Both the position numbers and the translations under genes were made by a program. Below the pieces are notes generated by a model. The model had not been told where the DNA came from and made no database searches. It worked only from the letters and a program-made list of their open reading frames with translations. This document shows positions 25,761-62,177 of a stretch of 64,000 nt of DNA, piece by piece; position 1 is the stretch's first letter, and each line of letters opens with the position of its first letter. This DNA is from Saccostrea echinata (lineage: Eukaryota), in contig NW_026889755.1 of assembly GCF_033153115.1 (NCBI RefSeq), positions 2,914,001 to 2,978,000 on the forward strand, given 5' to 3'.

Positions 25761-26974
25761 TGTAATACATTGTAATATATCACTTTATTTTATACGTTAT
25801 ATTGTGCGGTCGTCCAGTTCTCAAACTTGTTAAATCTATGTTCACCATGTGCCTGCCAGAAAAGTTGTTAGTTTACAATTTTATTGAAAATAGTATCTCT
25901 GCCTATCTTGATACGATTGTAGTAATAACTATAATCATCATATTTTACCTCCTGTTACTTCATGTAAAGTCGTAGGATTTATAATATCAGGGATAAGAGG
26001 GTAGATTTTACATTTCATGTTTTGGTAGCCATCATACTTTACTCGGATCTTCATTTCCGGTTTAGTGACATATTTACTATAGAAATCTATGATTGAAGTT
26101 ATGAATATTGTATCAGATTCTACATTTTAATTTGAGTTGTTGTGCATTTTGAGGCTATAAGTAGTTCTTTATTGTCAGCATTTACTTTATTATCAGTCAG
26201 CTTAATCGGGACTACATTTGTTTACGCTATGGTTGGTAGTTACGATATTCATACGCTACATTGTTCAGTATCTGTTGTACATGCAAGGGATGTTTTATAA
26301 ACATTGAAAGTATTAATTTTTTTCGTCTAGTCAAGTTTATTTTATGTATTCTATTTACATTGTTATATTTGTTACGATATTGTACGATAGCTTGTGTGGC
26401 AAAAGTAGTTTTGTGTGGGAACTTGTGTGGGAACTCAGCTTCCCGTACAAGCTGTTGATTGGTTGATAGTTCGTACGGCATATTTTCATTGGATAATTTG
26501 TGTCATGTGACAGGGGATAGGAGAATATATAAGCAAGCGCGTACTATGTTACGACAGATTTCAGCTAGTTGTACGACAACAACATTTAAAAAGGTAAAAA
26601 AGAAAACAAAGACGGTGAGATACTTATAATATAAATTAAACGTAATTAGCCTAGTTAAAAATCTCCTACCACACTGGACGACCTAAACTTGTGTTTCTGA
26701 GGAATCAGCCATGTTATCTTATATTGTTATATGTGTATTGCCTATATTGTTATGATAATGAGATGCTGTACGTACAGTAAGTGATTAGTATGACTGATCA
26801 TTCATCTTAAGTATTATTCCACCAAGTATATAGAGAGGAGCCTGATCTATTTTACATGAGAGCAAATTAAATTGGTGCATCCTGTTAAATAGATGATTTA
26901 TTTAGATGATGGAGTAATTAGCTCTATACATGCTAAGGATTCAGAAATACTAGCCACCCCTTGGGTAGCTTACA
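25761..26974 (+). repeat. 5' LTR of element 1 (1214 bp)
   Basis: Direct repeat of 33779-34994 with scattered substitutions and indels. CCAAT (GATTGG), TATATAAG near 26527 and a candidate donor GACG|GTGAGA near 26614. Confidence 0.95.
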
Positions 26975-26977
26975 AAC

Positions 26978-26995
26978 TGGTGTCAGAAGTGGGAT
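26978..26995 (+). promoter_or_regulatory. Primer-binding site complementary to the tRNA-Leu 3' end
   Basis: TGGTGTCAGAAGTGGGAT, 3 nt after the LTR. Confidence 0.85.
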
Positions 26996-27148
26996 ACTAA
27001 ATTTTATTTAGTGTCCTGATACGAGCCCATGAGCCGTTCAGTGTGGTAGTTTTACAACTACATGAAAGTCTTAGAAGATAATATGACATAGATATAACAA
27101 TAGAATCATTACTACTTATTAAAGACGACGAAAAAAAAAGAATTTAAG

Positions 27149-28944
27149 ATGGCAGAATCCGGTGAGTCGGTTGATCATGAAGTCGAGGTAATGAGTCGGT
27201 TACATTTGAGGATGGTGGTCAAGGTGACACATATGATGAACGTCAGAAGTCAAGCAATGATGAAATATTTCCTCCCAAAAAAAAAAAAAAACGAAGACAA
27301 TCATGGTCCACCACCAAGCACCTATAGTGGTTTTTCTGGCAGACCTGCCCTTCAGCTTTCCTCCGCAAGTGAGTTAAGGCTAAGTATAGAAGTTTCAATG
27401 AAAACGAACGAATTAAAACGCATAAGGACTATACTTATTATACAGAAAAGGTTAAAACTTATTTTCTAATGCAAACATGGTGCCCGCGACAAGTGATAGC
27501 CAGTACACATTATGACGTCATTGCTCTCTACTACACCATGTTATAAAGAATATCAACAAAAAAGCTTCGGCGCAAGGGCATAACCTATTTATTTTTACAG
27601 AAACAGGGTCTAATAAGAAGCAGAATATTCCAAGGATTTGTGATATTGCTGCACAAATGTCAACAGATTAATTGTTTAGTTACTATTTGTAAAGTTTTCA
27701 GTTGAAACGGGGTAAAAATTCACAGTCCAGGGTATGTTTCCTCAAATTTTTATTAAACGAGAAAGTGCATAGGATTTGTGCAGCACTTTTTTTAATCTTT
27801 ATAATATTCTTCATAGAATTATACATTAATTACATAAAATTAAATAGGGTATGCCCTTGCGCCAAAGCCGTTCGTTGACGTACTTTTTTACTTTGAGTAC
27901 TAAAGAACAATGACGTCATAATATGACGTCATAATGTGCACTAGCTATAACATGCCTTGGGAACTAAGTATGTACACGAAAGTAAACTTAAGTATTCTCT
28001 GTATAATAAATATACCATTTTTGTATTTTTATTAGCTCATTTGCATAGAAACGCCTATACGTAGCCTTAAATCACTTGCGTCAAGTCCTATCCAACCTGT
28101 AAATAACATGGTGAAGCCAGAGTCCTATGATGGTACTGTAAGCTGGAAAGAGAAGATTTCACATTTCAACGGCTGTGCGGAACTAAGCCAGTGGACAGAG
28201 AGAGATAAAGTACTGTTTCTTGCTCTAAGCTTGAGAGGCCAAGCCAGGACATTTTACACGAGTTAATGTTTGGTTGAAAGAAGATCCTTTGACGCCCTTA
28301 TTAACAAGTCTAATCAGCGGTTTGGAAATTCCAGACACGAGAACAAATGGTTAGCTAAGCTTGAATAACTCAGACGACAACAGGGTGAGAGTGCTCCTGC
28401 TCTAGGTGATGATATCCGACAGATGGTTCACAAAGCCTACTGTAATTTAGATGAGCAAGCTCAAGAAAGCTTTGCTTTAAATCACCTTTACAAACTGATA
28501 ACTGTAGAGATGAAGTGCAGATGTATTGATAAAGATTGTCGGAGCATTTTAGAAGCTGCTGATATAATTGACAGATATGAAGCCATCCTTGGTGAAAACT
28601 ATGACAAAAAGAAACACAATGCTAGAGCTGTCAAAACAAATGATGAGGAATTTAATGTTCCACAAGCTGTGCCAGTGACGAGAAAGTTAGCATTTTTTAC
28701 TGCGTCTAGAAGCAACTCTCCTGATTCATCTTCACTAATTCAAGAAATCAGCAACAGATTGGACCGCCTGGAAAGAGCCAACAAGAAGTTTTCTCCTCAA
28801 CTCTGTTTCCACTGCAGCTCACCTAAACATTTTATCAAAGACTGTCCTTATTTGGACAAACCAAGACCTGGACAGAGAAGAAATCAAGATGTACTAAGGC
28901 GACAAAATTACCAACAGGGAAATGGGAGACCATCAGCCTTGTAG
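27149..28944 (+). pseudogene. gag: gag of element 1 (interrupted and frameshifted)
   Basis: VKPESYDGTVSW...HFNGCAELSQW...KVLFLALSLRGQARTFY and a CCHC knuckle CFHCSSPKHFIKDC. Split by a 689-bp insertion. Start uncertain. Confidence 0.85.
27378..28066. mobile_element. Kolobok-type MITE inside gag
   Basis: TTAA TSD (27374-77 / 28067-70), termini GGCTAAGTATAG / CTATACGTAGCC, long imperfect palindrome. Confidence 0.85.
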
Positions 28945-31530
28945 GTCGACAGCTGGTGGAGGAGCCAAGACCTAGTTCTGACGACTCACGGGGGTGGTTT
29001 TAAATAAATAGAAAAATGTCTCGGATAATGGTTTCCATATTACTGGAACATTGGGTGGGTGGATGTTATTTTTTTTTTACTAGACAGTGGTTCTACTGCA
29101 TCACTTTTGTCACATGTGGAATTTCTGAAGATTCCGAAGGAGTCGTGTCCTGATCTTCAACCCTCAAACATGTGTGCGCAAGATTTGAATGGTCATACAT
29201 TGTCAGTCCATGGTATGGGAAGATTTTACATTTATCTAGATGTTCCACATGCAGTTGACTTGTTGGTGGTTGACATGGATCTTCCTGCTATCCTGGGACA
29301 AGACTTTCTCTTGCAGTATTGTCATCACATTAACTATAAATCAAAAACACTAAAGACTGAGAAGACAACTGTTCAGTGCTGGATTACCAATGATCAAACA
29401 GCTACAAATGTAGAGGTCAAGAAAACAGTTTCCATACCTGCAAATTGTGGTATCTGGGTTCCAATAGCTTTGACCAGAAATGGAGACCTCACCGATATAG
29501 GCTTCCTTGAGCAACTTAACACCTCTAGTGATGACATACAAGTACTGGATGGTTTGATAGATACCCAGTCTGATCAGATAAATGTAAACATTGTAAACTT
29601 TGGAGAAGAACCTGTAAAACTTCAAGCCAGAACTCTAATCGGTAAATGCAGAAATGCATATTTAGTGGAACTGGGTACCATACCACAGAGAGTCTTAGTA
29701 CTTAAGGATACCAAGGAAAATACAACTCCTGAAAAAGATTTACCAGAACATCTCCTTGACATGTTTGAAAGAAGTTCGATAAATTTTGACCAAGAACAAA
29801 AAGATGCTTTCTTCAAACTACTCCTACAGCACAAAGATGTATTTTATAAGACACCAGATGATCTTGGCTGCACTGGTATAATGAAACACAAGATAGATAC
29901 AGAAAATGAGAAGCCAGTGAGACAACCTCTAAGAAGACAACCTATAGCAAAAAGAGATAGTGAAAGAAGAGAAGTACAGAACATGTTAGAGAAAGGTGTA
30001 ATTGAACCATCCAGCAGTGCCTGAGCATCAAATCTAGATTTGGTAGCTAAGCAAAATGGAGCCACCAGAGCATGTGTCGACTACAGACAGTTGAATGCGA
30101 AAACTGTGAAAGATGCCTATCCATTGCCCCGTATAGATGAATGCCTTGATTCTCTAGTACCAAATGGTTTTCAACGATGGACCCCAATTCAGGTTTTTGG
30201 CAAATAGAAATGTCTGAAAGGGACAAAGAGAAGGCTGCATTTGTTACAACATTAGGACTTTTCCAATTTCAAGTCATGCCATTTGGTCTGGTTAATGCCC
30301 CGTCTACATTTGAGCGACTTATGGAGAATGTACTGAAAGGTCTACAGTGGACTGAATGCTATATATATGGATGAAATAATTTCCTATAGTTCAACTTATG
30401 AGGAAGCCTTCAGCGCTTAGCCAATATTTTTACGAGACTTCAAGAAGCAAATCTAAAACTCAAGCCATCAAAATGTATATTTTTCCAAAAACAAGTCAAA
30501 TTCTTAGGTCACATACATGTAATTTCTTCAAAGGGTATCCAGACAGATACTGAAAAAATAGCTGATGTCAAAAACTGGCCAATTCCAAGGAATGAAAGAC
30601 AAATCCGATCATTCCTCGGACTTTGTTCTTACTACAGAAGATTTGTGAAGAATTTTGCAGAGGTAGCAAAGCCTCTCCATGATTTATACAAGAAAAAGAC
30701 AAAGTTCTTATGAACCCCTGAATGTCAGAATGCATTTTACACCCTCAAAACAGCTCTTACAACTTCGCCAATACTTGGGTTCCCATTACCTGGACTACCA
30801 TTTACTCTAGATACCGATGCCAGCAATAAAGCTGTTGGTGCAGTTTTGTCTCAACATCAGGAGGGCAAAGAAAGAGTAATTGCCTATATGAGTAAAACAA
30901 TGAACTGCCATGAGCAATCCTATTGTGTCACACGTAAAGAGTTGTTAGCTGTTGTCACTGCCCTTCAGAAGTTTCATTCCTACCTCTGTGGTGCTGAGAA
31001 GACCACGTCTCGCATAAAAAATTCATTTTACTGGCCATCAATGTCAAAAGAAATTGCAAGATATTGTAAAACATGTGATTTATGTGCTGCTCGTAAATCC
31101 AGCCAAAAGCAAAACAGAGCACCATTAGGACAGTACATGGTTGGAGAGCCATATAAGGGATAGCTCTAGATACTCTGGGACCTCTTCCTGAGTCTACAAA
31201 AGGTAACAGATACATTCTGGTCATGATTGATTGTTTCACTAAATGGACCGAAGCTATAGCTATCCAAGAAGCTGAAACTGTTATTACGACTTTTGTCAAT
31301 GAAGTAGTCTGCCGGTTTGGTACACCTTTAAAAGTCCACTCAGGTCAAGGAAGAAAATTTGAGTCAAAAGCTTTTAAAGAAGTGTGTGAACTTCTCCATA
31401 TTGACAAAACTAGGACAAGTAGTATGCAAACCTCAAGCTAATGGCAGTGTAGAACGCTTCAATCGTACCTTAGCTACTATGTTGACTATGTACTGCGAGC
31501 ACAACCAGAAAATATGGGACAAGTCATACT
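28921..31530 (+). pseudogene. pol: pol of element 1 (PR-RT-RH-IN), with multiple stops, frameshifts and internal deletions
   Basis: LLDSGS protease; SGFWQI and VMPFGLVNAPSTFER RT; LDTDAS and RKELLAVV RNase H; FYWP..CKTCDLC, DCFTKW and NGSVERFNRTL integrase. The RH-IN junction is deleted near 30990. Confidence 0.92.
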
Positions 31531-31925
31531 TAGATGTTTATGTAGATGATAGATGTGAGATTGGTGCACCATTGAAGTTGGGATAGAGCTGGTCTGATCA
31601 CCCAGAACTCTTCTCCCAAAGATGTTGATAGAGATGGTTAACAAGTCGTTTATATGACAGTATTATAGACGTGGACCTACTACCTGGTACACATCACACA
31701 TTGAATCCTATAGATGTTTGATGTCTTGTTCTAACCAGTTTCTTAGAGATTTAGATGTAGTTGTTAGTACATGTAGTGGCTAACTTCAGAAGTAGAAGTG
31801 TTAATGATGTTATGATATCCTATTTAGTTTAAACAACACAGAAACTCTTTTAGAAGATAAGGCGATGTAAGATGACGCATGAATTCCCCTTTAACAACCA
31901 ATTACTTTGATTTTAGACTATTGTT

Positions 31926-33767
31926 ATGGAGTGTTGGGTGTGCCACCTGGAGTTTTTCTCCAGCAGAGACCTTAAGAACCATATGATGCCTACGCATGGA
32001 ACTATGAGAGTTGTTTGTCCTTGGTGCCCCGACGAAAGGACGTATAAAAGAGTCACTGACCTCAGGAGCCACATCAAGTCAACACATCCTCACCAGCTCG
32101 CCAAATATCCATCTGACTTGATGTCGGAAAATAATGGTGTGTGGTTTAGCCTCGACCCAGAGGATACAGTCGTTTGGTCAACGGAACAGAATGGGGGAGT
32201 ACCTCTGCCACCCATGCAAGAGTTTTGTTCTTAGAATGGCTTTCCACCACAAGGAGAACCACCAGAAAAAAGGATGACTGGCAGAAAGGATGGGACAAGT
32301 TAAAGAAAATCACACACACACAGGCCCCAACCCCAGAAGCCTTATTCCAACCAGACTATGACGAAGAAGCCCTAGATATGCCAACCATATGCTACACGCC
32401 CTCTGCCCCTGAGATAGAAGAGCTGGAGATACAGCACGACTCGCTGATGTTGGGTAAAATATGCTTGTTTATAGGCCAGGGCAGACAGATCTTAAAGATG
32501 AATATAAGAGATGGCATCCTCACAGGGAGTAGCCAGTCTCTCGAGGAAGTTGTCGGTACAGAAGAGGAATGAAGCCCCTCAGATTGACCAGACGAAGATG
32601 GTGCAATTAAGTTCACCTACCTTCCAGTCTAGATTAATGAAATTTGCTGGCCTTGACAAGACCTACCTTGAAATGATATATACCACGACAGAGGCATATG
32701 ACAACAGTCCTCCCGCAAAGAAAATCAGATTTTCAAGCCCAACCCCTGCTCTCACTGCACCAGCCATAGCAGAAACTCCATCTGAGCCAGCCTCGCAGTC
32801 AGTGAAAGATTCTACTAGTAATAAGCCTAGAGCAAGTATGTCAGATAGGGCCCTCAACCTCCTAAAACGTGGATGTTTACCATTATTTCCTCCAGGAAGA
32901 AGGAACTGGGGCACAGAACAGTTAACACTGAAGTTGAAAGATCTCAGTATTTTATGGCCTCCAAAGGACTGGCAGGGGATGTCATCTGATAGAAAGCTTT
33001 TATCGTGGGAATTCAAATCCATGACTATTCAACAGAAGATAGACCAAACAAGTTCCACTATCGAACGTGTGGATTTATTAGATAAGTTCAATTTCCTCGC
33101 ACTTCCGGGATCAGTAGAGAAGATTGGGAAGGAGGAACAAATTGTTCGAAAGGCTCGATACTACATATATGAACAACTGAAGACAATAGTTAGCGAAGAC
33201 AATGGGGATTCGACCTAGGTAAAGATGCTCGAGAGATCATGTGCTCTTAGGGACCCCTCCACTGATGACCTTCTTGCAATTATAGCAGACATGTTTACTC
33301 TTACGATTTCGCCGTATTTTGTACGGATTTTCAGTACGTTTTGCTATAACGAAAATACGGAAATCCGTTCATATGGATTTTAGCAATTAGTTTTCGTTAT
33401 CTGTCTCAGTTTGACGCTTTTTAATCGCTAAAGAAGAGAAAATTTTCAAACATTTAAGTTGCCAAAACGCAGTGGTTTTAAAAATGACAGAAAGCACTCA
33501 AAAGAGAGCAGTGTATGACGTTTTGCTTTGTTATTAAACCATGTTTTGGTAATCAGAAATGTAGTTGTTTTCTAGTAATATATGTATAGTCGATGAAAAG
33601 TTAAATCTTACGGGCAAATGCCAAATCTCACTGACAAATCTAATGAAAAATATTGAGAGACAGCAATTTGGGTAAACAGGTCTGTTATAGACTCTAACTG
33701 TAAATCTGTAAAGACTGTTAAAGCTATGTTGATGAAAATTTTAAATTCAGGAGAATTTTGTAATTAA
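31926..33767 (+). pseudogene. ORF3 of element 1: ~480-aa protein with two N-terminal C2H2 zinc fingers
   Basis: Overlapping ORFs 31926-32234, 32174-32572 and 32511-33218 join through two frameshifts. The frame continues past TAG (33216) and across the 33286-33684 insertion to TAA at 33765. CWVC-x12-HxxxxH and CPWC-x13-HxxxxH. Acceptor TTTTGATTTTAG at 31916. Confidence 0.75.
33286..33684. mobile_element. 399-bp MITE with 6-bp TSD (hAT-like CAG termini)
   Basis: TIR CAGACATGTTTACTC / GGGTAAACAGGTCTG. TTATAG at 33280-85 and 33685-90. Confidence 0.8.
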
Positions 33768-33778
33768 GTTGTGGGGAG

Positions 33779-34994
33779 TGTAATATACTGTAATGTATCA
33801 CTTTTTTTTATACGTTATATTGTGCGGTCGTCCAGTTCTCATACTTATTAAATCTATGTTCACCATGTGCCTGCCAGAAAAGTTTACGCTTACGATTTTA
33901 TTGAAAATAATATCTCAGCCTATCTTGATACGATTGTAGTAATAACTATAATCATCATATTTTATCTGTTGTTGCTTCATGTTAAGTCGAAGGATTTATA
34001 ATATCAGGGATAAGAGGGTGGATTTTACATTTCATGTTTTGGTAGCCATCAAACTTTACTCGGATCGTCACTTCCGGTTTAATGACATATTTACTATAGT
34101 AATCTATGATTCAAGTTATGAATATTGGATCAGATTCTACATTTTAATTTGAGTTGTTGTGCATTTTGAGGCTGTAAGTACTTCTTGATTGTCAACATTA
34201 ACTTTATTATCAGTCAGCTTAATCGGAACTACATTTGTTTACGCTATGGTTGGTAGTTACGATATTCATACGCTGCTTTGTTCAGTATCTGTTGTACAGG
34301 CTAGGGATTTTTATGAACATTGAAGGTATTAATTTATTTGTCTAGTCAAGTTTATTTTATGTATTCTATTTCCAGTTGTTAATTTTACATTGTTATATTT
34401 GTTACGATATTGTACGGTAGCTTGTGTGGCAAAAGTAGTTCTGTGTGGGAACTCAGCTTCCCGTACAAGCTGTTGATTGGTTGATAGTTCGTACGGCATA
34501 TTTTCATTGGACAATTTGTGTCATGTGACAGGGGATAGGAGGATATATAAGCAAGCGCGTACTACGTTACGACAGATTTCAGCTAGTTGTACGGTGGCAA
34601 CATTTAAAAAGATAAAGAAGAAAACAAAGACGTTGAGATACTTATAATATAAATTAGACGTAATTAGCCTAGTTAAAAATCTCCTATCACACTGGACGAC
34701 CTAAACTTGTGTTTCTGAAGAATCAGCCATGTTTTCGTATGTTGTTATATGTGTTTTGCCTATATTGTTATGACAATGAGATCTGTACGTACAATAAATG
34801 ATTAGTATGACTGATCATTCATCTTAAGTATTATTCCACCAAGTATATACAGAGAGAGGAGCCTGATCTATTTTACATGAGAGCAAATTAAACTGGTGCA
34901 TCCTCGTAAAAAGATGATTTATTTTGATGATGAAGTAATTACCTGTATACATGCTGAGGATTCAGAAATACTAACACCCCTTGGGTAGCTTACA
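33779..34994 (+). repeat. 3' LTR of element 1
   Basis: Follows the PPT, matches the 5' LTR and is followed by the ATAT TSD. Confidence 0.95.
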
Positions 34995-35734
34995 ATATGT
35001 TTAACATATGTTTATGAACATATGTTGATCGAACATTTAACATATGTTGCTTATGTGTTTTGTTTGAACATATGATTAACATATGTTTATGTTCATATGT
35101 TTTTCGTATGTTAAACATATGTTAAGTTTATTTCTTGCTTACATTTATTATTTAATTATTTTGTATTTCTATGGATTGCAAAGTTAACTAAAAAGTACTC
35201 TTGTCCTTTGATCATTTAATGATCACAGTCTCCAGCAATAATATTGTGTTTATTTTTTTCAAATTTTTACAAAATCCTGACTTTATTTCCCTGACAGTGA
35301 CTGCATTGCTTCTGAAATGATAAAGAAAAGATCATAAAAATTAAGAAGTCAACTACATGTATAATTAAAAAAAATATATACCTGTATATAGTTTGCACAA
35401 AGAGTAATTACTTTGAGCACTTACAATTTTTTTTCTTGGCCTGTTCTTTGTTTTCTTCCATTTTACAACCCCTTGGAACCTCATCATAGGATTTGAAATT
35501 GTCGCATGTTAAGGTACTGTGCGGCACTACAGTGGAGACTCCAATTTTAAGGTTCTGTTGATTAATACAGGTTCTCTGAAATACAAATTAAACTCTACAT
35601 GTAATTTAAGTTCATACACTGAAGAAATTTGTCATGTGCAAACAAATGCATACTCCATTCTCCTAAACAGTTATCCGTTATGATACGAGTTAAAACTAAT
35701 TTCATAAAACAATATATGGTGTTGTATAACACCA

Positions 35735-37272: not shown

Positions 37273-40200
37273 AAACTAGTATTAATTGTAACGGGGACCG
37301 TTACAGATGTTCCCCAAACGCTCCCCAACTTCCTTTTGGTGTCTTATTCCCTGTAAGCTTCATTAAATAAGGCAATCAAGTATATTGGGTTTTTTTACGC
37401 ATTACACACGCGCGCACAGGCATGCATGTACAAAATGACCATGTCAACTTGTCTACATTTTTAATAATCTTTATATTCAAATTTCATTAAGAGATTAAAA
37501 AAAAAATTCGGCTATATTAAGTATATCTGTCATTTTACGCATTGCACGCGCGCGCACGTGCATGCATGTCCATGATGACCGTGTCATCTTGTCAACACTA
37601 TAAATATATCTACATATTTCGGGTATCAAATCATTTCATCCAAAAGTATAAAAGTTACAGCTATATCAAGTATATTGGTCATTTGAACATTGCATGCGCG
37701 CGCACATGCATGCATATGCATGTTGACAATGTCGTCTTGTCTACATTTATAATATGTCTATATATTCTGAGTATCAAAGCATAGCATCAAAAAATGTAAA
37801 AGTTATGGCTATATCAAGTATATTGGTGATTTTACTCATTGCACGCGCACGCACGTGCATGCAAATGCATGCATGTGCGCGCTGATCATATCATCTTGTC
37901 TACACTTCTAATATATATTTATATTCTGAGTTTCGAAGCAATTCATCCAAAAATATACAAGTTAAGTGTATATTATTCGTAAAGGTTATTTCAATCATTG
38001 CGCATGCGCACACGTGCATGAATGTGCATTTTGACCATGTCTTCTTGTCTACACTATTAATATATCCTGATATCCTGAGTATCAAAGCATTTCATCAAAA
38101 GAGTTGAAAGTTATGGCTATATCAAGTATATTTGTCATTTTACTCATTGCACGCGCACGCACGTGCATGCATGTGTGCGCTGATCAAGTCTTCTTGTCTA
38201 CACTTCTAATATATATTTATATTCCGAGTGTCAAAGCAATTCATCCAAAAATGTACAATTTAAGTCTATATCAATTGTATTGGTTATTTTAATCAATGCG
38301 CATGCGCGCACGTGCATGCATGTGCATTCTGACCATGTCATCTTGTTTACACTATTAATATATTCTTATATTCTGAGTATCAAAGTATTTCATCAAAAGA
38401 TATAAAAGTTATGGCTATATCAAGTATATTGGTCATTTTACTCATTGCACGCGCACGCACGTGCATGCACGTGCGCGCAAAATGACGTTCGTTCCGCAAA
38501 TCTACATAACATTCCTATTAACCCTAAAAAGGTTTCAACTCAATCGGATGTATAGTTTCGGAGATCACTCACGGACAAAAAAGTACCCAGGAAGAAAAAT
38601 AATAATAATAACTAGATACTTATTGCCTAGGCAATAACAGGTCTTCCGTTTTCTTGACTTCTTTGGAAAAAAAAACACAATCTTGTCAAAAAGATTACTC
38701 TAAATAATTAATAAAAGTTATCTCAAGGCTTCCAAAGATATGTAAATACAGATAAAAACAAACGGAATTACTTTTCTGTTTTCTTTATATACTTCGTCAT
38801 GAACGAAAGTGCTCCAAATGAATAAAATGTTCATTCTACACCTAAATTATTCACAACTGATCATCCCTAAAAGTTTCCATGAAAAACTACTCATATTTGA
38901 GACAACTTCCGGTTTTTCGGTTGGCACTTCCGATGAAAATAATTTGCATGGTCATGGTCTTTCTTACATCTGCATTAGCCAAACATTTCTGTAAAAAGTA
39001 AAAAAACTTCACTTTTTTGCATCGCTTCCTGTCACGACCGGAAGTGACGGCAACGTACGATTTTTACATGATGTAGATAAAATGGTGACTGACTATCAGT
39101 TCTGAAAGTTTTAGACTTCAGTCATATACTGTTTTTGAGCAATTAGGTGAACAAAGTTTCAATTTGAGGACAGAAAAACACGCGACCGGAAGTGCATTTT
39201 CCTAAGATGGTTGACTTCACACTAGACAATTGCAGTCTCAATAACATATGTAAAAAAAACATTGCAAAAACTTTATCAATAAGCGATATTTTTGAGAAAG
39301 TTAAAAATACCGATTACAAAGTTTCTCTCTTATAACCGGAAGTTGTCGTCTTTTGTTTCCAGTGAGACCAACACATATAGAAACGGTGAAAGAGATTCAA
39401 TTAAATGATGCAAATTTTATTTCAAAAGAGAAAATTTGAAATTTTTAATTTCTTTGATCACTTCCTGTAACGACCGGAAGTGACGGCTGACGCTATTAAC
39501 CCAAAGGGTTAAGCTTACTCCTTAAGTTCTATTACTCTTATAAGTATAGTGTCTTATTCTCTTACCGTTTCTGAGATCTCACTTTGACAAGTTCTTATTT
39601 TGCGGACAGTAAAACACGCGACCGGAAGTGAATTTTACCAAGATATTTGACGTTACTCTAGACATTTGCAGTCTAAATAACCTATCTAAAAACCATTTCA
39701 AATACTTCAACCATAAGCGATATTCATGGGAAAGTAAAATACTAAAATTATGTACTTTTTCGCTTATAACCGGAAGTTGACGTTTTTGTTTCCGGTGGGA
39801 CCAACATATTTCGAAACTGCAAAACAGATTCAATAATGTGATGCAAGATTTAATTAAAATAAGAAAAGTTGAAATTTTCGATTTCTTTGATCACTTCCTG
39901 TGACGACCGGTAGTAACAACTGACGAATCTAAACCAATTCTGCAAACCTACTTGTCATGATCTATCACTCGTGAAAGTTTGGTATTTTAAGCTTTTACCG
40001 TTTCTGAGATCTCGTCCGGACATGATCTCTTTTGAAAAAACGGAAATCGGACATATCTGACGACCGGAACTGAATTTTGCAAAATCCTTCAAAATGTTTT
40101 AAGTTTATTATATTTGTCATAAACTCTGAAAGTTTCAAGAAAATCCACCAAGCCATCTCTGAGAAATTGCTTGGACAAAAAACGGGAAAAAAATAATAAT

Positions 40201-44275: not shown

Positions 44276-45200
44276 CACTTTCATCGACGATTCCGAGAAA
44301 TAAACTTCAGTTAATTAAAAATATATTTTCTTTATTCTTTGGATATTTACAGGTATGTAAATCATATATTTTTCAGTTAATTGATTCATTTTCCATTAAA
44401 GCAATTCTGTCTATTTCATAAATAATTTTGAAAAATATTAAGTATTCTATTGATTAAGTATTTTTATTTATTTCTTTTTTTTCTAAATTTGAGCTTTGAA
44501 TTAAGTTTCCTTTAAAGATTTTATTGTTGCATAATCTTTATGCATAGTGACCTCATTTAGTCTTTTATAGTTTATAGTTGCATGTTTTATTGTAATAAAT
44601 GGGTTTAGCGACAGTCTCAAGTAAAGTGCATTGTTCTTAGAAAAGTTATTTGTAATTTAGCGCCATTATATTCATTTTGCGTTCTTTAATGTAAGGAGGT
44701 AAAAATGTTATTTGTTTATGTTTAAAAACGCTGGAAAAGTAAAATGACTTTAGAGTTAAAATCGTAAGTAAACAAGCTTTTGATTGTTAAGATTAATGTT
44801 AGATTTAAATACTTTCTAGTTCAGTCTATTTGTAATTTTAGTTCTTTATTGATCAAAGTCAAGAGATGCGTGTAGCGTTGATAAGGATCGTTTCGAATTT
44901 TCTCTGTGTATGAATTAGAACCTTGAGACTGTCAGCTGTACTGATGTGTAGTTTAGGTTTATTTTTGGTATCTACGTTGTGTTAAAATGTCACGTCACAG
45001 AGGGATTTTTCTCAAATTGTTTAACCCTCTGTACAGTCACCTGATCTAACTTTAAAACGTATTTTTATAATATTTTGAATTAATTGTGTAACTGGTGACT
45101 GTTTGTTTAAAAGCATTACATTGCACTTTCATCGACGATTCCGAGAAATAAACTTCAGTTAATTAAAAATATATTTTCTTTATTCTTTGGATATTTACAG
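44276..45200 (+). repeat. Identical 77-bp direct repeat (44276-44352 and 45124-45200) bracketing a GT-AG intron candidate (44353-45200)
   Basis: The two copies are identical by eye. Copy 1 is followed by GTATGT; copy 2 ends in a pyrimidine tract + CAG. Each contains AATAAA. Confidence 0.9.
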
Positions 45201-45376: not shown

Positions 45377-46621
45377 ATGCCCAAGTACAACTTAAGGAAA
45401 AGACGAAACATGTCAACCGGAACGCCCGAGAATGCCTCGACTTCCACACAGGCAGAACCAGCTAATCTTCAGGCAGAAATCATGGCTAGGGTCCATGAGA
45501 AAAATGAGGAAATCGAAGTACTTAAACAAAGAGTGGAGGCAGAAAAGCAACGACAAGAGCAGAAGGAGCAGGAGCTGGCCTCAATGAGACAGCAGTTACT
45601 GGTGCTCAAGCAACAACAACAGCAGCAACAACAGCAGCAACAGCAGCAAGTACCAACACCCCCACCACAAATGCAACAGCAAGCCAGTCCTAGCCTAGTG
45701 CCAGCTACAACAAAACTGTCCAACATCAAGCTGGAGAAATTTGATGGAAAAACATCTGCTGTTCAGTGGTGGATGAAATTTATGGCTTTTATTTCCATAC
45801 AAGGTCTTTCAGAACAGACAGCCATCCTCCACTTACCCTTCTTCTTAATTGGAGCAGCAGAGACGTGGTTTAATTCATTGGAAATGGTAAAAAAATTAAC
45901 ATTAAGTTCAATTCAAGAAGCCTTCATCAACCGTTTCAAGCCACCATCAAACCATGCCTTTGATCTTCTAGACATGCACCAAGGACTTGCAGAGAGTGTT
46001 GAGGAATTTATACATAGGGTAACAGAAAAAGCAACGGACTTGAAAATGGACACCAATCAGACCATGGGTAAAATAATCAGAGGCTTAAAACCAAAAATAA
46101 AAGCAGATATGGTAAAAGTCAACCCTAAAACCATGGAGGAACTTCGAACTCATGCTATGCTTGCAGAGATGGCCCAAACCATTAGTAATGACGACAATGT
46201 ACAGTCTGCAACCAGTGCCGCAGTATGCAGTGCAATGACATCCCTGGAGGAACGGATGAGTGCTCTGGAGACGTCGAATATCAACATGCTCCAGCAGGCC
46301 AGACGTTTCAACAACTCAACCCCACAGAAGCCCTCCTTTAACAACGCCCAAGGCCAGTCACAGAGGGGTCCTCAGCGCCATGGGTACAGGGAGCCTGAGC
46401 CGAAGAACCAGAGTCCCAAACAGAGGTCCTCCCAGCGTTGCTACAGATGTGGTGAGTCTTGTGATTCATTTTATAATTGTAGAGCCAGAAATCAAAAATG
46501 CATGTATTGTGGTAGATTTAATCATTTATGGGGATGCTGTCGTAGATTAGAAAATGACCTTAAAAATGGTAGAGTTCCACGTACTGACATACAGTCCTTG
46601 ACTACTAATAATTCTGCATAG
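45377..46621 (+). CDS. gag: Gag of element 2 (coiled coil, poly-Q, capsid, two Cys knuckles)
   Basis: Intact 414-aa ORF with KLEKFDG..W, LIGAAETWF, Q...ESVEEF, RGLKPKIK, CYRCG...C and CMYCGRFNH...C. Confidence 0.93.
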   Translation: MPKYNLRKRRNMSTGTPENASTSTQAEPANLQAEIMARVHEKNEEIEVLKQRVEAEKQRQEQKEQELASMRQQLLVLKQQQQQQQQQQQQQVPTPPPQMQQQASPSLVPATTKLSNIKLEKFDGKTSAVQWWMKFMAFISIQGLSEQTAILHLPFFLIGAAETWFNSLEMVKKLTLSSIQEAFINRFKPPSNHAFDLLDMHQGLAESVEEFIHRVTEKATDLKMDTNQTMGKIIRGLKPKIKADMVKVNPKTMEELRTHAMLAEMAQTISNDDNVQSATSAAVCSAMTSLEERMSALETSNINMLQQARRFNNSTPQKPSFNNAQGQSQRGPQRHGYREPEPKNQSPKQRSSQRCYRCGESCDSFYNCRARNQKCMYCGRFNHLWGCCRRLENDLKNGRVPRTDIQSLTTNNSA

Positions 46622-49600
46622 GGATTCGAGCCTGTCTTTAGGAAAGTTTCTAAAGATGGGCACAATGACAAATGTCCTAGGGTAAATGTGGTGACACATA
46701 TGTCCAAAAACACAGTCAAAGTTAGCATTAAGGGACAAACAACTAGTGCTCTTGTAGATTCAGGTGCTGCAGTGACAATTTTAAGTAAGGTGTTCTTTGA
46801 AAAAACCGCTTATTGTGGGTCAAAGTTGCAAACTCCAGATTTCCCTCATGTGATAGGTGCTAGTGGTCGACATTTAAAAGTGCTAGGCAAAACAAATATT
46901 GAATTTGCAATTAATGGTACTAGATACACCTTTTGTGCCCATATTGTTGATGGTTTACATCACTCCTTTATTTTAGGAATTGACTTTTTGTGTGCTTCTA
47001 ACACCACACTAACCTTTGCTGATACTAACACAATGCACATTCCAGACAAAAATGGTGCACCAAATGTTTGTGTAATTAACACTAATGCAGGGTTAGCCAG
47101 ACTTACTCACCCAGTAGAGTTACCAGCTAGGTCAGAATTGATTGTTCAGGTCAAAATTTCACGCCAACAACAAGACAGAGAAGTGCTACTTGAGCCACAT
47201 GATAAACTTTTAGCTAAAAAGTTAGGTGCTGCAAAATGCCTTGTTAAGGTTCACAAACAAAAGGGTGTCATCAGAATTATGAATCCTCACTGCTACGAAA
47301 TTTGCTTGCCCCAAAATTATGTTGTTGCTCATGTTATGGAAATAGAAGAAAATCACATTTTTCCTTTAGACTCAACATCAAAACATCATAATGGCAAATG
47401 CAATATTCCTCAGGTCAATCAGATCACTCCAGAAATTCAAAAACAAACTGAAATTCATTTCAATCTTGACAATGCAGATTTGGATTCTTCTCAAAAGCAA
47501 ATTCTGTTAGACTTTTTGGCTAAACACAGGGACAATTTTGCTCTTGATTTAACAGAATTAGGCAAAACAGGTATACACAAACACCACATAGAAACCAAAC
47601 CTGGCTCACGACCTGTTCGATTACCCTTTTACAGAACATCTCCACATTCATCTAGGGAAATTGATAGACAAATACAAGAGATGCTTGACAATGACATTAT
47701 TCAGCCATCTAACTCTGAATGGCACTCACCAGTGGTTCTTGTCAAAAAGAAAAACAATACATACAGGTTTGCATGTGACTATCGTGCATTAAACAAGATC
47801 ACAATTCCCATGTCATTTCCCTTGCCACATATTGAGAGTGTGTTTGATGCCATAGGTGAAGCTAAAGCAACATACTTTACCAATCTCGATTTGATGTCAG
47901 GATTCTGGCAGATGGAGTTAGATGAAGGTAGTAGGCAAAAAGCAGCTTTCATCACACAAAGTGGTGTTTATGAGTGGAAAAGAATGCCTTTTGGATTACA
48001 AAATTCTCCAATTTCTTTCCAAACATTAATGGCAAATGTTCTCAGAGGTTTGAATTGGAAATCCGTGCTCGTTTATGTAGACGACATTTTGATTTTTTCT
48101 AGCTCTTTCGATGAACATCTCAAACATTTAGGCCATGTTTTTGAACGTCTAAAAGAAGCAAATTTAAAATTACAGCCCACAAAATGCCACTTTGCTGTGA
48201 AAAAGCTCAAATTTTTAGGTCACATTATTTCTAAAAATGGTATTCAGGTAGACCCAGAAAAAACCAAAGCCATGAGTGAATTTCCCACTCCCAAAACACA
48301 AAAACAGATCCGTAGTTTTTTAGGAATGGCAAATTACTACCGTCGTTTCATTCCTAACTTTGCAAAAATTGCAACGCCCTTAAATGCCCTATTGTCCAAA
48401 GAGAAAAGGTGGGAATGGACAGAAGCTTGTCAAGAAGCTTTCTTAACACTTAAAAACAAATTGGTAAGTGCTCCAATCCTTTCCTACCCTGATCCAAACA
48501 GGCCATTTATTCTTACATGTGACGCCTCAGACACCTCAGTTGGTTATGTGTTAGGTCAATTGAATGACGAAAACAAAGAATATGTTGTGGCATATGGAGG
48601 TAAGTCACTTTCTCCAGATCAACGCAAATTCACAACAACTGAAAAGGAATGTTTAGCAGTTTTAACTGGCATAGAGGCATATCGACCATACTTAGTTCAT
48701 GGTAAGTTTACAGTTGTGACAGACCACAAGGCACTAGTATGGTTACAAACAGCAAAGCATACAGGTAGGTTAGAAAGATGGGCGCTAAAATTACAAGAAT
48801 ACTGTTTTCAAATGGTACATCGTCCCGGCAAAAGTAATTGTGTTGCAGATGCGCTAAGTAGACGACCGTATCCAGACACTGAGGTAAGTAGTCAAACAAT
48901 CAGTTCACTTGAAAACATTGCCACACTCACCTCTGAAGAAAATACAGCAGTAGTGAGTTCATCAGAAGACACTGAAGAAGAAAGATGTCCTCTTTTTGTT
49001 TACCTAGGATACTCTGATGATCCCAAAGAAATAAATGTACTTTCCACAGAAGAGGTAAGTGATACAGAACCCCCATCAGTCAATTTGACAGACCTTCCAA
49101 AACTGCAGCAAGAGTGCCCAGATTTTCAGCATATTTATGCATATCTAAAAGACAATATACTTCCAGACGATGCCAAAACCAAACAGGTAACAGTAGCAGA
49201 AGTTAGACACTTTGACTTAGTTAATGGAATTCTTTACCATTGGTACCAGAGAAGGGTAAAGAAAGCAGTAGATGATGAGGTAAAACATGTCAGACAAATA
49301 GCCCTCCCAAGAGTCCTACGGCAAGAGCTTTATTTGCATATCATGATAGCCTTGCAGGAGGTGCCCACTTAGGCATAGAGAAGGTCAGACATGCTTTGGT
49401 ACTGAAATATTATTGGCCAAAGATGTATCAGGATGTTATAGATTATGTCAGGTCATGTGATAGGTGTCAGCGTGCAAAACGTGACTACAATCCCTCAAAC
49501 CCTCCAATGAATCCCCTACCCCCAGCTAAGCGCTTTGAACGCTGGCACATTGACATTCTAGGGCCACTATATAAAACAAAAGAAGGGTTTGAATACATTT

Positions 49601-61528: not shown

Positions 61529-62177
61529 TGTCACCGGGTCTTTTGTAGGATAAAAATCCAAAACTGGATTCGGCACAAACTATATTTATTTACTGTGCTT
61601 AGAACAAAAAACCTACAAAGTATAAATTAAACACACTCTCACAACACAATACACACACAAAACGAATACTTTACGTTTAACATCAGACATTAACAACACA
61701 TAAATTATATGATTGTTTGCTGTCGGGATTAATTAATAAAAGTAAATTATAAAATACTTTTATTATTATAATTATAATAAAGGTAAACAGAAAGCTTACC
61801 AGGAATCCAGTTAAATTAACTCCAACTAATACTTTACAGAATACTTCTATGTTTCAAATACATGTACAAACTTCTACCGTAAAGGCAAAACGCGTGGGGG
61901 GGGGGGGGTTCGAAAATTGGCGGGTACTACGCTTATATACTCGGTGCAGAAATTAAAACATGCATATTAACAAGATAAAAACAGTCGGTTATTGGTCAGC
62001 TGTAAGGTCATATTAGTTCGCCTAACCGGAAACACGTGGAAATACAAAAATAAACAATGTCACATGATCTCCCAAAACATTCACACTAGACACACAACAC
62101 AAACAAACGCAGCGAACGCATTCGATTGGCAATGCGCGCCAATTTTATGTATAAATTAAAACACAACATCTGTGACA
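61529..62177 (-). repeat. 5' LTR of element 3
   Basis: Direct repeat of 53103-53727, flanked by the ATAA TSD. Confidence 0.95.

Follow-up and report, generated by a model that had tools for sequence, protein, structure and literature searches.

The window analysed here, a stretch of 64,000 nucleotides (nt) of Saccostrea echinata (contig NW_026889755.1, positions 2,914,001 to 2,978,000 of the forward strand), carries a copy of a Ty3/Gypsy retrotransposon with gag, pol and env genes (Table 1), and our subject is the junction between gag and pol, where a single stop codon is followed by a hairpin. The order of the domains found with Pfam, gag and then protease and reverse transcriptase (RT), followed by RNase H and integrase, is that of Ty3/Gypsy elements, and by its sequence the element can be classed as an F-type-env Ty3/Gypsy element, an errantivirus in the broad sense, the trees described below containing no named insect references. 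Named members of the nearest Gag clusters come from Crassostrea/Magallana. The Baculo_F domain was also matched in two relatives with the same UAG junction (9e-13), and the env-like frame of another relative, L001, was detected by tblastn, without a Pfam match.

The window copy is damaged. Its pol is broken at the integrase, and the relatives carry a single Pol of about 1300-1480 amino acids (aa); its env is truncated (506 codons versus 798-841 aa for the env frames of the relatives); and no pair of long terminal repeats (LTRs) was found for it within the window, the 3' end of the element being lost. Being broken in integrase and env, it lacks the uninterrupted gag, pol and env frames by which the errantivirus survey discussed below recognises its elements. 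Because of this damage, decay was a real possibility for the TAG as well.

Table 1. Features of the window mentioned in the text, those of the element with the gag-pol stop given first.
Feature	Coordinates	Strand	Remarks
gag open reading frame	45377..46621	+	ATG 45377, 414 aa, ends in TAG; Pfam Retrotrans_gag 2.8e-8, Ty3_capsid 3.4e-5
Splice-donor-like site (putative), phase 1	46449..46457	+	GT at 46452; first cysteine cluster of gag
CCHC zinc knuckle of Gag	46499..46540	+	from translation; begins 40 codons 5' of the stop
In-frame UAG separating gag and pol	46619..46621	+	A before, G after
8-nt spacer	46622..46629	+	length and first G conserved, remaining letters variable (per-position table of relatives)
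Hairpin, 14 bp in the window copy	46630..46661	+	relatives conserve the basal pairs, GCCU with RGGC
pol, first part: protease, RT, RNase H	46622..49372	+	Pfam gag-asp_proteas, RVT_1 4.6e-41, RT_RNaseH 9.8e-34
pol, second part: integrase, different frame	49279..50670	+	Pfam Integrase_H2C2, rve
F-type env open reading frame	51192..52712	+	506 codons stop to stop; Pfam Baculo_F 5.8e-18
Splice-acceptor-like site (putative), phase 1	51251..51270	+	just 5' of the env signal-peptide-like stretch
Second Gypsy element, decayed	53103-62177	-	~640-bp LTRs 92% alike, PNMA-like gag
Third Gypsy element, decayed	25761-34995	+	~1.2-kb LTRs 91% alike
447-codon frame	20795-22138	+	Pfam IgGFc_binding 1.5e-44
Tandem arrays	954-1925, 18024-19505, 37375-38480		periods ~168, 156, 149 bp

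The gag and pol genes share one frame, and the TAG is all that separates them. A reading made earlier from the sequence alone (the sequence-only reading) had described this layout as a single TAG and, after it, a G, a spacer of 8 nt and a hairpin of 14 bp in which three pairs are G-U, and the description is exact: counted on the sequence, the hairpin has 14 contiguous pairs, three of them G-U, and a 4-nt loop. The catalytic DSG of the protease lies at 46757. Each of the five stretches folded (32-141 nt) has this hairpin as its minimum-energy structure; for folds from the stop onward we observed z-scores of -3.63 (52 nt), -3.48 (82 nt), -3.84 (102 nt) and -2.69 (141 nt), and folds as good as the native one were found in 2, 1 and 0 of 200 shuffles for the 52-, 82- and 102-nt stretches, respectively. 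The spacer, with five purines of eight, is not notably purine-rich. A search of the junction in Rfam gave nothing relevant, the four matches being at chance level. A second predicted hairpin (46680-46705) lies 18 nt 3' of the first.

Protein relatives share the position of the stop. Four of the six close Gag relatives (47-78% identity) end with NSA at the place of the window's stop, and the other two are without the knuckle. The same end was observed in their two Gag clusters (48 and 117 members, 15 listed for each): in each cluster it is shared by 9 of the 14 additional members listed, the others again lacking the knuckle. On the Pol side, none of the 54 relatives showing the protease motif (of 74 Pol relatives) and none of 57 further cluster members with this motif had the protease preceded by a knuckle in the same frame, so the fused frame is absent among close relatives; the search for longer, fused Gag forms also returned none, which is weak evidence by the search tool's own note. 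Among the Pol relatives with a called start at least 28 residues before the catalytic Asp, 11 of 17 begin with the peptide pattern predicted by the stem arms (background, 20 of 908). In P0284, a member, at the 90% cluster level, of the nearest family, both arm peptides are kept and the loop is one codon shorter. The claim that the stop is programmed and does not come from decay is borne out by this identical Gag end and by six diverged elements, described below, in which UAG-G, the spacing of 8 nt and the stem are retained; most copies among the relatives do not have a sense codon here. It is nearly certain that the stop is inherited and selected. The last residue of 108 distant Gags is enriched in Q, K, R and H (Q 34, versus 11% in tails); this may hint at a wider shared context and, concerning protein only, was not counted as evidence.

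DNA of the relatives came from metagenome records and from contigs with retroelements that had been placed in bacterial genome bins and presumably represent host DNA. Eukaryotic Gypsy contigs were present inside many bacterial and archaeal genome bins (G001-G005, most of the loci L025-L088). The G002 bin alone gave 96 matches to the window Pol, and in the family around it no match was found in 299 of 301 genomes; the first genome scan, as well as scans of viral contigs with a single protein and two alignments, yielded no match. The junction was classified in 190 loci. One in-frame stop shortly 3' of the knuckle was observed in 18 rows, corresponding to nine distinct elements. In seven of them (the window, L001, L002, L025, L027, L028 and L119) the stop is UAG-G, followed at 8 nt by GCCU, and in two (L029 and L129) it is UGA-C. 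The seven UAG elements are 49-63% identical in RT-RNase H, and all but one have A before the stop. L001 carries the stop as well, and each of its gag, pol and env frames is open. The two UGA-C elements (stops at L029:70-72 and L129:1438-1440) are sisters with 68% RT identity and have in common a 7-nt purine-rich word about 35 nt downstream.

The spacer is 8 nt long in all seven UAG elements. It begins with G in each (G5 in one of seven, purines 2-5 of 8), and its other letters vary, as do those of the loop; neither the loop nor the upper stem is conserved. The stem opens with GCCU at +9, and its 3' arm, chosen by the RGGC rule (R, purine), terminates in RGGC, which is in frame and situated at +31 to +46. 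In pairs 1-3 one finds G-C, C-G and C-G throughout, pair 4 is U-G in four elements and U-A in three, and pairs 5-7 change on both sides (G-C/A-U, U-A/C-G/A-U and C-G/U-A exchanges). Pairs 1-4 hold in seven of seven elements and pairs 1-7 in six, with 47 of 49 cells paired. As to the conserved TAG-G and covarying stem that had been proposed as a check on the relatives, UAG-G is shared by the seven UAG elements, pairs 5-7 are exchanged with compensation, and pairs 1-3 never vary. The 14-bp length is not conserved in the sequences compared, only the basal four to seven pairs being so. When folding starts at +9, with the spacer excluded as if held by the ribosome, the same first pair forms with probability 0.96-1.00 in every element, and z-scores of the +1..+60 fold are -4.0, -1.3, -2.9, -3.0, -0.8, -1.7 and -3.1.

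The coding sequence allows one to distinguish constraint on the peptide from constraint on the RNA. Codon +3 ends in G in all seven elements while encoding E, M, A, V, S, A and A (five different residues), and the proline codon is always CCT, versus 25-57% CCT elsewhere in the same pol frames (the product for the six relatives is ~0.003, kinship ignored). As both are invariant despite the freedom of coding, the constraint is on nucleotides. Concerning the choice between hairpin and pseudoknot, which the sequence-only reading had left to folding, the hairpin is the favoured fold, and no conserved pseudoknot was found by a simple helix scan without a pseudoknot energy model. Shuffles equalled the window's best loop-to-downstream helix in 14 of 300 cases; this helix, whose loops (0 and 11 nt) are non-classical, is in competition with the upper stem. 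For the best second helix in five other UAG elements the figure was 144-296 of 300. The motif TAGG-N7-GCCT...RGGC alone is not rare (8-42 matches per genome in five genomes, with controls of like size); the short motif matters only through its position at the gag-pol junction. Matches of the motif search in these five genomes were mostly due to chance, and the best-looking new hairpin (G002:C887) sits among bacterial genes.

Two trees were built: a 127-row FastTree, for which 96 loci were omitted (short, low-scoring, duplicates, and four retrovirus-like), and a 32-row maximum-likelihood IQ-TREE of a hand-picked subset. In the former, all nine stop elements fall into one 45-row branch (support 95) that is free of frameshift and fused rows and in which 36 rows carry no junction class, and all 36 frameshift rows, three elements with pol in the -1 frame among them, and all nine fused rows lie outside it. 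In the latter, the nine stop elements form a 12-row branch (100/99) together with these three long-branched -1-frame elements (L149, L150, L153). A single origin of the stop in the nine elements is compatible with these trees and is not shown by them. In the three -1-frame elements pol overlaps gag by 61 nt, and the final 45 nt of gag showed no classical slippery heptamer common to them. Three Gypsy-like elements that are more distant (L063:2154, L064:3055, L074:3082) have a long frame with one in-frame UGA-CGG, about 200 codons before the protease, and a strong GC-rich 3' structure; they represent a separate candidate for type II readthrough.

The known signal closest in layout is that of murine leukemia virus (MuLV), where, as described in passages of three papers (PMC3159437, PMC13517186, PMC8310308), an in-frame UAG 3' of the zinc knuckle and 5' of the protease is followed by G at +1, an 8-nt spacer and a structure starting from G9. 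Shortening this spacer by one codon impairs readthrough (passage in PMC13517186), whose level is given as about 5% in the cited reviews. The Moloney MuLV signal (Beier-Grimm type III, UAG-G) and the UAG Gypsy elements have in common UAG-G, the 8-nt spacer and a structure at G9, and this part of the proposed MuLV likeness holds. In other features the two differ: the H-type pseudoknot, the defining feature of MuLV, is replaced by a hairpin of variable length, and instead of a purine-rich spacer with conserved G1 and G5 the Gypsy spacers share only G1 and are not rich in purines. MuLV is also a retrovirus, while the UAG elements are Ty3/Gypsy with F-type env, and in the latter, unlike MuLV, the stop precedes the catalytic Asp by 45-72 codons. 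Hence, by analogy, the junction would work like a MuLV type III signal without being one.

It had also been stated that Ty3/Gypsy elements usually frameshift or fuse gag and pol. Readthrough is indeed uncommon among them, but there is a precedent in the chromoviruses Tj1, Tcry1 and Tosmo1-3 of fission yeasts, which, according to passages of bioRxiv 2022.12.06.519325, carry a single conserved stop, in frame and in UGA-CU context, that separates gag from pol and is essential in Tj1. These are, like the window element, Ty3/Gypsy with an in-frame gag-pol stop; they differ in being fungal, in the UGA-CU context and in having no env, and the passages mention no 3' structure. Tca2 of Candida, a Ty1/Copia element, is described in a passage of PMC2194720 as having an in-frame UGA, an 8-nt spacer and a predicted 3' structure; thus it shares the stop, the spacing and a predicted structure with the window and differs by UGA and by family.

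Taken together, the junction can with good confidence be considered the programmed gag-pol junction of an envelope-carrying clade of invertebrate Ty3/Gypsy elements. The UAG is very likely bypassed by readthrough, and the hairpin probably stimulates it. Most ribosomes would halt at the UAG, releasing Gag; in a small share, a near-cognate tRNA would insert an amino acid and the ribosome would continue in frame, producing Gag-Pol. The G at +1, the A at -1 (six of seven) and the GC-based hairpin, situated 9 nt downstream at the mRNA entrance of the ribosome, would favour bypass by delaying termination. We infer the occurrence and level of readthrough, the inserted residue and the action of the hairpin as a stimulator. 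As for the origin of the signal, we lean towards an old marine-invertebrate Gypsy clade that reached the gammaretroviral geometry (UAG-G, 8 nt, G9) independently, with a plain hairpin on a fixed GCCU/RGGC base, and in which some branches later moved to UGA-C or to the -1 frame; convergence with gammaretroviruses appears to be the simpler reading.

Several observations weigh against this interpretation. One distant Gag, P0131 (27% identity), continues into the protease in one frame. The invariance of pairs 1-3 is conservation and not covariation; in L027 only four pairs precede an internal loop. If the spacer is left free to pair, another hairpin is favoured in L001 (the anchored pair has probability 0.19-0.32), the register changes in L028 (0.05-0.10), and the z-scores of the +1..+60 fold are weak in three of the seven elements (-1.3, -0.8, -1.7). 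The UGA-C elements L029 and L129 have no GCCU stem, one of them with almost no local structure; therefore not every part of the clade requires the stem. In the smaller tree, the three -1-frame elements fall within the clade of the stop elements, and a clade made up of just the nine stop elements receives a support of only 28/86. The sample is small, seven elements with four from two bins. Finally, the local signal of Tca2, MuLV-like in layout, produced no readthrough when assayed with a yeast reporter (passage in PMC2194720). It is because of this failure and of the UGA-C sisters without a stem that the role of the hairpin is given as probable.

The same observations would fit a variant in which the stop is read through, but the A-UAG-G context or a distant element drives the process, the hairpin being kept for packaging, dimerisation or protection from nonsense-mediated decay. 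In favour of it, the UGA-C sisters lack the stem, the loop and the upper stem are not conserved, and Tca2 offers a precedent. However, the distance between the stop and the stem is exactly 8 nt in all seven elements despite the varying spacer letters, and while this spacing matters for readthrough structures (passage in PMC13517186), a packaging hairpin would not need it; hence we regard the variant as unlikely.

Still less probable are routes in which Pol arises through splicing that skips the stop, through reinitiation or from a pol message of its own. A donor-like site is indeed present 128-167 nt 5' of the stop in five of the seven UAG elements (it is missing from L027, and the upstream sequence of L028 is only 95 nt long), and several eukaryotic gene models join gag and pol near the junction, omitting the knuckle region, probably via predicted splicing. 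But a model with splicing into pol was not supported, as an in-frame donor/acceptor pair with a pyrimidine tract of at least 9 of 14 was found in none of nine elements, and the phase of the donor fits acceptors ahead of env instead of pol. Positions of AUG ahead of the protease are not conserved, L002 having none at all, and none of these routes would account for gag and pol being kept in frame with one stop. In a comparison over 8.3 kb, three contigs, one of which comes from an RNA library, span the junction, two of the three gap-free, which is a weak argument. The remaining alternative, a nonsense mutation in a decayed single-frame element accompanied by a chance hairpin, would agree with the damage to integrase and env, with the missing LTR pair and with the fused gag-pol elements of neighbouring clades (nine rows), yet the stop position shared by the Gag relatives and the stop and stem shared by six diverged elements already contradict it, and the search for longer Gag forms, weak as it is, points the same way; this alternative is scarcely tenable.

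The junction holds a real, conserved, base-paired signal of the recoding type, with a familiar class of mechanism. Recoding between gag and pol in LTR elements was surveyed chiefly by Gao et al. 2003, and Leng 1998 reportedly concerns Skipper of Dictyostelium. Gag-pol readthrough in Ty3/Gypsy elements is known, as the fission-yeast passages with UGA describe. The survey of Chary and Hayashi (eLife 2026, PMC13524379) describes mollusc and annelid Ty3/gypsy 'errantiviruses' with gag-pol-env and F-type env, as in the window, and its supplement lists bivalve F-type elements, oysters included. Its main text contains no occurrence of readthrough, read-through, recoding, translation, splic- or frameshift, so pol expression and the junction are not treated in that text. 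Likewise, a term search of a 2026 review of readthrough in animal viruses (PMC13517186) gave no occurrence of retrotransposon, gypsy, errantivirus or Metaviridae. Our literature search found no report of a UAG-hairpin signal in animal Gypsy elements, its scope lying outside subscription papers, Repbase and the sequence files of the survey, which may already note the stop. Within these limits, a structured UAG readthrough signal across a diverged envelope-carrying clade of invertebrate Gypsy elements appears to be unreported.

How 3' RNA structures promote readthrough is still described as an open question (discussion of PMC3159437). The MuLV pseudoknot is the main UAG model, and a diverged set of hairpins with equal spacing allows for tests of distance, stability and particular pairs at the mRNA entrance. 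If our interpretation is true, these elements form a natural series demonstrating that a pseudoknot is dispensable at the +9 position, and a strategy of gag-pol expression is added for envelope-carrying Gypsy elements outside insects. Annotators should not take the single stop at this junction to indicate decay; it is apparently spliced out in several gene models of the databases.

The donor-like site in gag may be a candidate donor for env and not for pol, as judged from the comparison of the window, L001, L002, L003, L025, L119, L226 and L228. It lies in the first cysteine cluster in five of the seven UAG elements, phase 1 being computed for the window and taken from codon reading for the others, and phase-1 acceptor-like sites 5' of env were seen in five of the six env frames examined in the window and relatives. 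The env frames of the window and L001 have no AUG ahead of the signal-peptide-like stretch. Joining the donor to the env acceptor would yield a Gag-Env fusion without knuckles, and three database products (P0006, P0231, P0247) depart from the Gag sequence at the donor-like point. The UAG element without a donor-like site in gag, L027 (the same element as L225, G001:C364), has an F-type env frame with its own early Met upstream of gag, in the order env-gag-pol, its membership in the element being putative.

Upstream of gag, the window contains an exact 77-bp duplicate (44276-44352 and 45124-45200) that ends in an acceptor-like CAG, the first copy being followed by a donor-like GT. The decayed element on the reverse strand closely follows the truncated env and has an unrelated insertion near 56480-57510. 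The other decayed element has extra frames 3' of the integrase, one of them with a C2H2-like motif near 31917. The frame matching IgGFc_binding is probably a host exon.

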